Of a stretch of 64,000 bases of DNA, positions 58,839 through 60,541 are shown one piece after another. The position numbers and the translations under genes are program-made. Source of the DNA: Escherichia coli 042 (lineage in GTDB: Bacteria > Pseudomonadota > Gammaproteobacteria > Enterobacterales > Enterobacteriaceae); NCBI RefSeq assembly GCF_000027125.1, contig NC_017626.1; one strand, given 5' to 3'. Under the pieces are notes generated by a model that was given only the letters and a program-made list of their open reading frames with translations, was not told the DNA's origin and made no database searches. The first letter of the stretch is position 1, and each line of letters begins with the position of its first letter.

Positions 58839-58869
58839 CGCCTTTACTCCCTGTTAGTTGTTATTTATT

Positions 58870-59352
58870 GGCGGATGCGGCGTAAACGCCTTATCCGCCC
58901 TACATGTGCAATCCTGTAGGCCGGATAAGACGCAGCAAGCGTCGCATCCAGCAATTGCACCGCGCCACTGGCGGATGCGGCGTAAACGCCTTATCCGCCC
59001 TACATGTGCAATCCTGTAGGCCGGATAAGAGCAGCAAGCGTTGCATCCGGCAATTGCACCGCGCCACTGGCGGATGCGGCGTGAACGCCTTATCCGCCCT
59101 ACATGTGCAATCCTGTAGGCCGGATCAGACGCGGCAAGCGTCGCATCCGGCAATTGCACCGCGCCACTGGCGGATGCGGCGTGAACGCCTTATCCGCCCT
59201 ACATGTGCAATCCTGTAGGCCGGATAAGACGCGGCAAGCGTCGCATCCGGCAATTGCACCGCGCCACTGGCGGATGCGGCGTGAACGCCTTATCCGCCCT
59301 ACATGTGCAATCCTGTAGGCCGGATAAGACGCAGCAAGCGTCGCATCCGGCA
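58870..59352. repeat. Tandem BIME array: 5 units of about 100 bp, each with two inverted REPs (10 REPs)
   Basis: Units begin at 58870, 58970, 59069, 59169 and 59269. Unit sequence: ggcggatgcggcgtRaacgccttatccgccctacatgtgcaatcctgtaggccggataagacgcRgcaagcgtcgcatccggcaattgcaccgcgccact. The array fills the eutG-eutH spacer. Confidence 0.92.
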
Positions 59353-59353
59353 T

Positions 59354-60541
59354 TTATTGTGCCGCTGCGTACAGGCCGACAATCTGCTCCAGGCTGGCGG
59401 TACGCGGGTTGCTGCGCAGACAAATATCTTCCAGCGCGGCCTGCGCCCATGCGCCGTAATGTCCGGTGGTTGCGCCCACGTCTGCCAGCCGCTTGTTGAT
59501 CCCGACTTCCGCAATCAGCTCACTTACCGCGTTAATAGCGTCACGATCGTCGGATTTTTTAGTTCGCAGCGCCCGACCAATCTGACTAAAGCGTTCACGA
59601 CAAACCATCCGGTTAAATTCCATCACCGTTGGCAGCAACATGGCGTTCGCCAGACCGTGCGGAATATGCAGCGCCGCCCCCGTTTGATGCGCCATCGCGT
59701 GGCATATCCCAAGCCCCGCACTGGAAAACGCCATTCCCGCCATGCATGAAGCCAGCAACATACTCTCGCGCGCGGCAAGGTCGTGACCGTAGCCCACCGC
59801 TTTCGGCAGTGATTTACCAATCATCGCGATTGCGCCAATCGCCAGGCTGTCGGTAAACGGTGTAGCGTTCAGCGCGCTGTACGCTTCAATGGCATGGGTT
59901 AACGCATCAATGCCAGTCATCGCCGTGACATGCGACGGCACGCCTTCGGTCAGCGCGGCGTCGAGGATCGCCACATCCGGCATCAACGAGGCATGTGCTA
60001 ACACCTGCTTGCGCCCGCTCACCGCGTCGATAATCACCGTTACGTTGGTGGTTTCAGAACCGGTTCCGGCAGTAGTTGGAATGGCAATCAGCGGCAGGCG
60101 CGGTTGCAGAACGCTGGTTTCTGACATTTCTGCCAGCGTGCTATCCGGGTTCGTCACCAGTAGTGCCACCGCTTTCGCCGCATCCAGCACCGAGCCGCCG
60201 CCAAACGCAATCACCCCATCGCACCCCGATTCACGCAACTGCGCCACGGCTGCACACACGTCGGTGATGCACGGTTCGCCCACCGGACATGACCAGAGCG
60301 TCATGGCGATACCTTTAACGGCCAGGCTACGCGTCAGCCCGGCGGTCATCCCTGCCTGATGCAAAAAGCTGTCTGCCATCACGAACAGATGTTTCAGCCC
60401 ACGCGTTTGCGCTTGCTGTCCGCAACTGCTCACCGCGCCCGGACCGCAAAGCGTCACCGGTGGAACGCTAAATGTTTTTACCCGTTGCAGATTCAGGGTA
60501 TCGAACGCCTGAAAGAGCGCGGTCTGCAATTCATTTTGCAT
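59354..60541 (-). CDS. eutG: Iron-containing alcohol dehydrogenase
   Basis: 395 aa. Matches EutG. Confidence 0.95.
   Translation of the reverse strand: MQNELQTALFQAFDTLNLQRVKTFSVPPVTLCGPGAVSSCGQQAQTRGLKHLFVMADSFLHQAGMTAGLTRSLAVKGIAMTLWSCPVGEPCITDVCAAVAQLRESGCDGVIAFGGGSVLDAAKAVALLVTNPDSTLAEMSETSVLQPRLPLIAIPTTAGTGSETTNVTVIIDAVSGRKQVLAHASLMPDVAILDAALTEGVPSHVTAMTGIDALTHAIEAYSALNATPFTDSLAIGAIAMIGKSLPKAVGYGHDLAARESMLLASCMAGMAFSSAGLGICHAMAHQTGAALHIPHGLANAMLLPTVMEFNRMVCRERFSQIGRALRTKKSDDRDAINAVSELIAEVGINKRLADVGATTGHYGAWAQAALEDICLRSNPRTASLEQIVGLYAAAQ

Follow-up and report, generated by a model that had tools for sequence, protein, structure and literature searches.

We analyzed a 64,000-nucleotide stretch of Escherichia coli 042 (NCBI RefSeq assembly GCF_000027125.1, contig NC_017626.1; hereafter the window, meaning this stretch at its full length), in which the spacer between eutG and eutH of the eut operon holds a tandem array of repetitive extragenic palindromic (REP) sequences enclosed by an 8-bp direct repeat. 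The two genes are in turn flanked by eutJ and eutA. The junction is made up of the following features:

57612..58838, minus strand: eutH (ethanolamine permease), 408 aa; full-length match to the NCBIfam equivalog NF011665, 873.3 bits
58839..58862, minus strand: native eutH leader, present in all alleles
58847-58851 (plus-strand positions): eutH Shine-Dalgarno sequence GGGAG, 8 nt 5' of the ATG
58863..58870: direct-repeat copy beside eutH, ATTTATTG
58870..59351, minus strand: array of type 2 bacterial interspersed mosaic element (BIME-2), 4.8 units, 10 REP hairpins; from Tandem Repeats Finder, repeats, unit dissection and a consensus fold
59352..59359: direct-repeat copy beside eutG, ATTTATTG (CAATAAAT on the coding strand)
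59354-59356: eutG stop codon TAA
59354..60541, minus strand: eutG (ethanol dehydrogenase), 395 aa; full-length match to the NCBIfam equivalog NF011998, 878.6 bits

A five-unit BIME-2 array in the eutG-eutH spacer

The spacer measures 515 bp (58839-59353), and Tandem Repeats Finder delimits within it, at 58869-59352, an array of period 100 with 4.8 copies and 97% matches. On the plus strand the units start at 58870, 58970, 59069, 59169 and 59269. The original prediction had described five tandem units of about 100 bp, with periods of 100, 99, 100 and 100 and two inverted REP palindromes in each, and this layout is both read from the sequence and recovered by the repeat finder. On the coding strand each unit comprises a Z2-like palindromic unit (PU) of 37 nt ending in CTAC, a 12-nt head-head linker (AGGATTGCACAT), an inverted Y-like PU of 34 nt beginning with GTAG, and a 17-nt tail-tail linker (AGTGGCGCGGTGCAATT).

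By definition, E. coli REPs are imperfect hairpins that carry GTAG/CTAC at the head and, internally, an AA/GC mismatch (PMC8266576). When 18 distinct units, drawn from seven Escherichia lineages, are folded to a consensus, the same two hairpins result, with 23 pairs and two compensatory pairs; the stems are of 7+5 bp and 7+4 bp, with a 2x2 internal loop and CTAC/GTAG heads. The eut units accordingly possess the PU hairpins of the BIME-2 class, and their 34-nt Y-like and 37-nt Z2-like PUs match its alternation of inverted Y (35 nt) and Z2 (37 nt) units, both types being stem variants of the canonical sequences. The PU pairs are repeated head to tail in a copy number that varies between strains (4.8 here, 1-5 across E. 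coli), and the short head-head linker appears to lack the long integration host factor (IHF)-binding motif of BIME-1; it spans 12 nt as against 35 nt in the BIME-1-like element of the window (37557-37654). A further hallmark of BIME-2 elements is strong binding and cleavage by DNA gyrase (PMC2817692). Three of the units also score above the Rfam gathering threshold for naRNA4 (RF02564) on the transcribed strand, with a fourth just below it:

59218..59299, minus strand: best naRNA4 match, 77.5 bits (gathering score 59.5)
58919-59000: further naRNA4 match, 75.9 bits
59118-59199: further naRNA4 match, 71.6 bits
59019-59099: naRNA4 match just under the gathering score, 59.3 bits

Judged by its sequence, the array is the five-unit allele of the BIME-2-type REP element that is known as REP178 in K-12. 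The type of element, the locus and the form of polymorphism are all known already. Open reading frames (ORFs) within the array, such as one of 101 aa at 58854-59159, are by-products of the repeat.

We considered and rejected a derivation of the 17-nt tail-tail linker from the 3' end of eutG (GCGGCGCAAT against GCGGTGCAAT, 9/10 identical), as the same linker recurs with flanking REP halves at nfeR-aer and is therefore a family motif rather than a local product. The identical linker is present at nfeR-aer also in O157:H7, which has none at eut, and the BIMEs of REP325 and rayT have other linkers. The likeness remains as an observation: the last 10 nt of eutG before the final TAA read GCGGCGCAAT in most strains and GCGGCACAAT here, 9 of the 10 agreeing with the 3' part of the linker, and MAFFT aligns the end of eutG with the linker (window 59360-59375 against array linkers such as 58952-58968). 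It is either due to chance or a homology that favours capture or register shifts. At nfeR-aer of E. coli O157:H7 (L083:451-560), a truncated Y-type REP (CGCCGCATCCGCC) begins 1 nt after the nfeR stop codon and is followed by the 17-nt linker and a Z2-like REP, making it another REP that abuts a stop codon.

An 8-bp direct repeat flush with both ends of the array

Exact copies of ATTTATTG abut the array on both sides, one of them containing the eutG stop codon, just as had been proposed. On the eutG side, the copy extends from the last Gln codon through the stop codon to 2 nt past it; on the eutH side, the last G (58870) of the copy also serves the first Y-like hairpin as its outermost stem base. 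No other exact 8-nt direct repeat exists in the region outside the array. When 489 bp are removed in silico, the spacer shrinks to 26 nt and GGGAG stands 8 nt ahead of the eutH ATG. The compact junction with its Shine-Dalgarno sequence, which the original prediction had expected upon removing the array with one repeat copy, is thus recovered, its spacer being 26 nt rather than about 24 nt.

We compared the boundaries of 13 REP/BIME loci from the window and 100 kb of K-12. The eut locus is the sole one with an 8-nt repeat flush with both boundaries, the other 12 having repeats of 2-6 nt. When left and right boundaries were mismatched, none of the 156 pairings reached 8 nt and four reached 7 nt. 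As the 12 other loci are without such a flanking repeat, it is specific to the eut locus. One of the compared elements, the one-unit BIME at ypeC-mntH (15863-15951), which shares the Y-variant PU, is flanked on either side by CAATGG, one copy flush and the other 8 nt off, which is within chance. This BIME is essentially fixed in E. coli. Its one short allele, a rare one in GN03551, was examined as a potential empty site and discarded: it has lost one REP through a 74-bp deletion, which lies between AACGCGT-like repeats and ends at the ypeC stop codon.

Copy-number variation within E. coli

The state of the slot was determined in 59 chromosomes out of 5430 matching records; these form a spread sample, so the frequencies are rough:

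5 units: 4 genomes (~7%)
4 units: 1 genome
3 units: 4 genomes
2 units: 24 genomes
1 unit: 19 genomes
decayed single unit (O157:H7 type): 4 genomes
unrelated 137-nt G-rich element: 3 genomes

The slot is occupied in all 59 chromosomes, and K-12 has two units at the same eutG-eutH site. All five units of the window carry CTACAGGATT, those of K-12, NCTC9699 and Oki carry CTACGGGATT, and the 4-unit array of NCTC9699 equals the 3-unit array of Oki plus one exact duplicate unit. These patterns indicate that the units evolve in concert and that whole 100-bp units are duplicated or lost in place. Differences between strains in copy number and linkers have already been described for BIME-2 loci (PMC3333891). 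The O157:H7 type (L003:580-678) has a 99-bp spacer with one decayed unit, in which several changes break the stems and 17 bp are deleted between CGGCA repeats, and one of its flanking copies is mutated to ATTTATTA.

In ~5% of the sampled genomes the BIME is replaced by an unrelated G-rich element of 137 nt (of the CCCTCACCC... type), which sits exactly between the eutG stop codon and the downstream CAATAAAT (L004:612-748 in E. coli FDAARGOS_1281, equivalent to 58871-59353 of the window). Its family is scattered, occupying 15 places per genome at the median. At the bacA-cca slot of three E. coli strains (L077, L088 and L089), the alleles are the G-rich element, a single REP or a three-REP BIME, and no empty allele occurs among them. 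The G-rich element, therefore, probably targets or replaces REPs, and its alternation with REP/BIME at bacA-cca means that it cannot settle the origin of the repeat at eut.

Empty and occupied junctions

We extracted the eutG-eutH spacers from the 69 loci that a scan with EutH yielded in species-representative genomes. The insertion proposed earlier predicted that relatives without the array would carry a single repeat copy at the junction. This is what we find in six Citrobacter species-level genomes and the bacterium BS0013, which are empty with a single CAATAAAT and a 27-nt spacer (CAATAA-AT ACACATATGACAGGGAG...ATG). The spacer of Enterobacter chinensis is likewise empty, at 30 nt, and in genera farther removed, REP-free spacers of 31-32 nt are seen in Pluralibacter, Yokenella and Phytobacter and of 45-48 nt in Buttiauxella and Morganella. 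In all six Escherichia lineages returned (E. coli, E. whittamii, E. ruysiae and three more), the BIME lies between two copies of CAATAAAT, and the eutH leader segment is identical or nearly so across all Escherichia lineages read.

Other genera hold their own REP families in this slot (L014-L048, from Salmonella, Citrobacter and Klebsiella). Klebsiella has CCCGG-type REPs in spacers of 146-216 nt. Salmonella diarizonae carries a single REP, whose orientation and 2-nt offset are those of the E. coli array (CAATAA-AC-GCCGGATG...CCTAC-AAATCAT), and in the Citrobacter youngae group a REP pair has rewritten the end of eutG (...AAG* instead of ...AAQ*). The eutG-eutH junction is the one eut junction that repeatedly gains REPs.

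Within E. coli, a pattern scan of metagenome contigs produced one match, the 6-kb eutE-J-G-H contig OGCV01001704.1 (L086). Its junction reads exactly GCGCAATAAATAACAACTAACAGGGAGTAAAGGCGATG, that is, the predicted 26-nt junction, so that the duplicated word is present as a single copy both in Citrobacter species and in an E. coli contig. The contig is 98.6-98.9% identical to K-12, 96.6% to the window and 99.8% to E. coli EC2641, from which it differs at the junction by exactly 90 bp, corresponding to one unit plus one repeat copy. Since occupied lineages surround it, we interpret it as a secondary precise deletion between the 8-bp repeats and not as a surviving ancestral site. It shows the module between the repeats to be a discrete unit that can be removed, and the compact junction to exist in nature. 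Such a junction could be mimicked by an artefact of assembly or amplification, as it comes from one contig of 6 kb, short reads make the assembly of REP arrays difficult and the junction is seen in no complete genome. However, the repeat copies share only 8 nt, far below assembler k-mers, and the path from eutG-specific sequence to AACAACTAAC should need real spanning reads. Further, the flanks of the contig in the aligned junction region are identical to those of a real strain, with a difference of exactly one unit and one repeat copy. Hence, we consider an artefact very improbable.

Origin of the flanking repeat

The comparison shows that the eutG-eutH junction was originally compact, at about 26-32 nt. 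As all six Escherichia lineages have the element between two CAATAAAT copies, it is most simply explained by one BIME unit having entered the common ancestor of the examined lineages. The array has since grown and shrunk in place by whole 100-bp units, and a precise deletion between the 8-bp repeats can take away the module together with one repeat copy, so that the junction is compact again. As to the repeat itself, the odds are roughly even that it is a short target duplication from that one insertion event, which would not be general to REP mobility. The original reading of the repeat as an insertion footprint is in part upheld: the Citrobacter genomes and the metagenome contig support the insertion of the module at a compact junction, and the repeat, seen at one of the 13 loci, may be a true footprint of it. 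To the explanation as a whole (an allele of REP178, inserted at a compact junction, with the array dynamics and repeat origin just given and the function proposed below) we assign a probability of about 0.72.

Several points weigh against this explanation, most of them against a target duplication. A duplication of constant length at most copies of the family was looked for at the 13 loci and is found at only one of them. TnpA-REP, which is IS200/IS605-like, makes no target duplications (PMC2817692, PMC3333891); the view that such a repeat is not expected for mobility of the REP-associated tyrosine transposase (RAYT) or IS200-IS605 type thus agrees with the literature. A or AT next to REP tails recurs at other BIMEs and G58870 is a REP stem base, so that the element's own ends could account for as many as three or four of the eight bases and the part truly needing explanation may be only about 5 AT-rich nt. 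The word is also not a rare one, as ATTTATTG/CAATAAAT occurs at 9 sites in the 64 kb of the window against 2.7 expected from shuffles, an approximately 3-fold excess. The REPs filling the same slot in S. diarizonae and the C. youngae group are accompanied by a repeat of at most 2 nt or a small deletion (read by eye). The empty E. coli junction is known from a single short metagenome contig, from a sample of unstated kind; the searches of complete E. coli genomes gave partial matches, but none of the 3945 carrying the tested allele reached 80% coverage, and hence none of these has an empty site. Finally, an origin ancestral to Escherichia refers to the lineages returned by the scan, among which E. 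fergusonii and E. albertii do not figure.

These points leave room for the repeat being a coincidence, possibly through a build-up in two steps. Here, a single Z2-type REP would have landed 2 nt after the eutG stop codon, with the linker and the inverted Y-type REP added later; the downstream "CAAT" would then consist of the last stem base of the REP and the usual A/AT tail, beside a native AAAT. The single REP of S. diarizonae, with the same orientation and 2-nt offset, makes such a build-up possible. Tail-tail linkers start with A or AAT elsewhere too (CCGCC followed by AATGGTGCC at 15951, CCGGC followed by AATGGTGCC in REP325), and T or AT is common before GCC(G/T)GATG at other loci. To these may be added the over-representation of the 8-mer in the window and the approximately 355 REP loci per genome (bioRxiv 10.64898/2026.03.23.713779), among which a few short, flush, AT-rich repeats are expected by chance. 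On the other hand, the eut repeat is exact at 8/8 positions and flush on both sides, unlike the 12 other loci and the 156 null pairings. Moreover, the ~5% of E. coli genomes with the unrelated element keep the full downstream CAATAAAT including "CAAT", suggesting that "CAAT" is not part of the BIME, and the single-copy empty sites read CAATAAAT, exactly as a duplication predicts. We therefore regard coincidence as a possibility of some substance, though one that we do not favor.

A different order of events is also conceivable, in which the repeat existed before the element did: a 6-8-bp tandem duplication of the Gln and stop codons by slippage (CAATAA.CAATAAAT), with the REP/BIME, and later the other element, inserting right after the first stop codon without a target duplication. 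Such a history would explain why the space from one copy to the other is filled, in different E. coli lineages, by exactly one or the other of two unrelated elements, and why the leader counted from the second copy is 32 nt, the length of the REP-free spacer of Pluralibacter and Yokenella. It is likewise in keeping with the many REPs located 1-20 nt from stop codons according to PMC12306157. However, the tandem form CAATAACAATAAAT without an insert was found in no genome or metagenome contig, and the insertion would need to have hit the exact point between the copies. At bacA-cca, too, the second element and REP/BIME are alternative occupants; this element probably targets or replaces REPs, so that there is no need for a pre-existing repeat. 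Such an order of events thus appears improbable.

Possible effect on eut expression

As mRNA, the array folds at -290 kcal/mol (z = -9.8 against shuffled sequence), with individual hairpins of -22.7 and -19.5 kcal/mol, and the first hairpin starts 2 nt (AT) after the eutG TAA. No intrinsic terminator or promoter consensus was found in the array. With ten hairpins on one strand between the co-oriented eutG and eutH, the layout resembles that of REP325, a 12-hairpin array in yjdMN that stabilises the upstream yjdM and lowers read-through into yjdN by about 8-fold (bioRxiv 10.64898/2026.03.23.713779). Rho dependence in REP325 is seen only with the full array and not with 2-4 hairpins, and the reported effects of REPs are context-dependent and variable (bioRxiv 10.64898/2026.03.23.713779).

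By analogy with REP325, the ten stable hairpins that the array is predicted to form in the eut mRNA most likely constitute a partial Rho-assisted attenuator of read-through into eutHABCLKR and a 3' decay barrier stabilising the upstream eutS...G segment. The original suggestion that the array could decouple the upstream eut genes from eutHABCLKR is plausible on this analogy. The strength of the effect would scale with copy number; on the REP325 precedent, the 10-hairpin allele should attenuate eutHABCLKR more than the 4-hairpin allele of K-12. Translation is lowered by REPs that follow a stop codon at a distance of less than 16 nt (Liang et al. 2015, cited from PMC12306157). The 2-nt gap between eutG and its hairpin falls inside this range, and hence the first hairpin should lower EutG translation. 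Two observations count against this view of the function. One is that the only Rho-binding entry for REP178, an in vitro fragment of K-12 (NC_000913.3 2568056-2568201), overlapping REP178 by 61 nt (bioRxiv 10.64898/2026.03.23.713779, supplementary table), is on the plus strand and is therefore antisense to the eut operon; its region corresponds to the eutH-proximal end of the array. The other is that the array, read in the mRNA sense, does not have a C-rich, G-poor composition (G 0.33, C 0.29).

The array could alternatively be neutral selfish or structural DNA of drifting copy number, with no meaningful effect on eut. The range from 0 to 5 copies within E. coli, the presence of only a decayed unit in O157:H7 and the ability of another element to replace the array all fit this, as does the variable, context-dependent nature of reported REP effects. 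Yet, the slot is filled in 59/59 sampled chromosomes and in 3945/3945 genomes with the tested junction allele, several genera have independently gained their own REP families at this eut junction, the hairpin stems are kept with compensatory changes, and a homologous intra-operon array, REP325, has measured effects. We accordingly deem neutrality unlikely, though it retains appreciable weight beside the regulatory role favored here.

Farther downstream, eutA occupies 56212-57615 and is directly followed by the next long same-strand ORF at 54839-56200, which, from gene order, we take to be eutB. The CPZ-55 prophage interrupts the eut operon of K-12 MG1655 downstream of eutA (PMC11334477); the direct succession of the two genes indicates that it is missing from the eut operon of this strain.

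Implications

Taken by itself, the element is nothing unusual within its well-known repeat family, and its locus has been annotated before. Four points are possibly new: the flush 8-bp repeat, the single-copy empty sites in other genera, the natural allele of precise excision, and the repeated gain, at one eut junction, of REP families that differ from genus to genus. All four come from a single locus and bear on how REPs spread. As the locus allows empty, one-unit and five-unit states to be compared with base-level junctions, and as its flanking repeat does not fit the expected duplication-free mechanism, it offers a useful test case in this regard.

The eut operon is linked to gut colonisation and virulence, and E. 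coli strains range from 0 to 10 hairpins in its middle. Should read-through be set by the length of the array, as is reported for REP325, the eutS-G to eutH-R product ratio would vary between strains. A more speculative extension, which we hold to be rather doubtful, is that BIME units can enter new sites by a route that duplicates 7-8 bp of the target, unlike the duplication-free RAYT mechanism. The repeat would later allow clean excision, and the array would act as a reversible attenuator, tunable by copy number (0 to 5 or more), that sets the ratio of eutS-G (shell and downstream enzymes) to eutH-R (permease, lyase and regulator) across E. coli lineages.

Comparison with known systems

The closest known counterpart is REP178 of K-12 MG1655 (NC_000913.3 2568140-2568322), which shares the locus, flanking repeats, PU subtypes and linkers with the array of E. 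coli 042. It is listed as "REP178 Tandem 2568322-2568140 eutG eutH" in a supplementary table of bioRxiv 10.64898/2026.03.23.713779, while the current RefSeq record of K-12 has no REP feature at eutG-eutH. REP178 has 2 units in a 216-bp spacer as opposed to 4.8 units in 515 bp here, and all units here carry the lineage-specific CTACAGG in place of CTACGGG.

REP325/naRNA4 (yjdM-yjdN, RF02564) is likewise composed of tandem Y/Z2 hairpin pairs of 100-bp period between co-oriented genes of one operon, naRNA4 being one two-hairpin segment of this BIME-2 array (bioRxiv 10.64898/2026.03.23.713779). It differs in having 12 hairpins instead of 10, a different tail-tail linker (AACGGTGCCGACT) and a head-head linker of 17 nt. 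Its PUs are canonical (GCCTGATG / GCCGGATAAGG), in contrast to the paired stem variants of eut (GCCGGATG...ATCCGGC and GGGCGGAT...ATCCGCC), and no flanking repeat was found for it in the 13-locus comparison.

The presumed mobilisation system for Y and Z2 REPs is the REPtron, i.e. TnpA-REP (RAYT) proteins related to IS200/IS605, and the rayT gene of K-12 is itself flanked by BIME-2. Insertion of the RAYT type leaves no flanking direct repeat, in keeping with the 12 other REP/BIME loci and at odds with the flush 8-bp repeat at eut. The eut unit resembles target-duplicating elements akin to MITEs (miniature transposable elements with inverted repeats) in its two inverted arms, the short direct repeat at its edges and its single-copy empty sites. 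The REP family as a whole departs from these elements in lacking a consistent duplication at its other copies, and no cognate DDE transposase is known for REPs. The mechanism of REP/BIME dissemination is still described as unresolved (PMC8266576). Lastly, with its first hairpin 2 nt past the TAA, the eut array falls among the REPs that lie within 16 nt of a stop codon and lower translation, as presented in PMC12306157, and a comparable effect on EutG would be expected by analogy.

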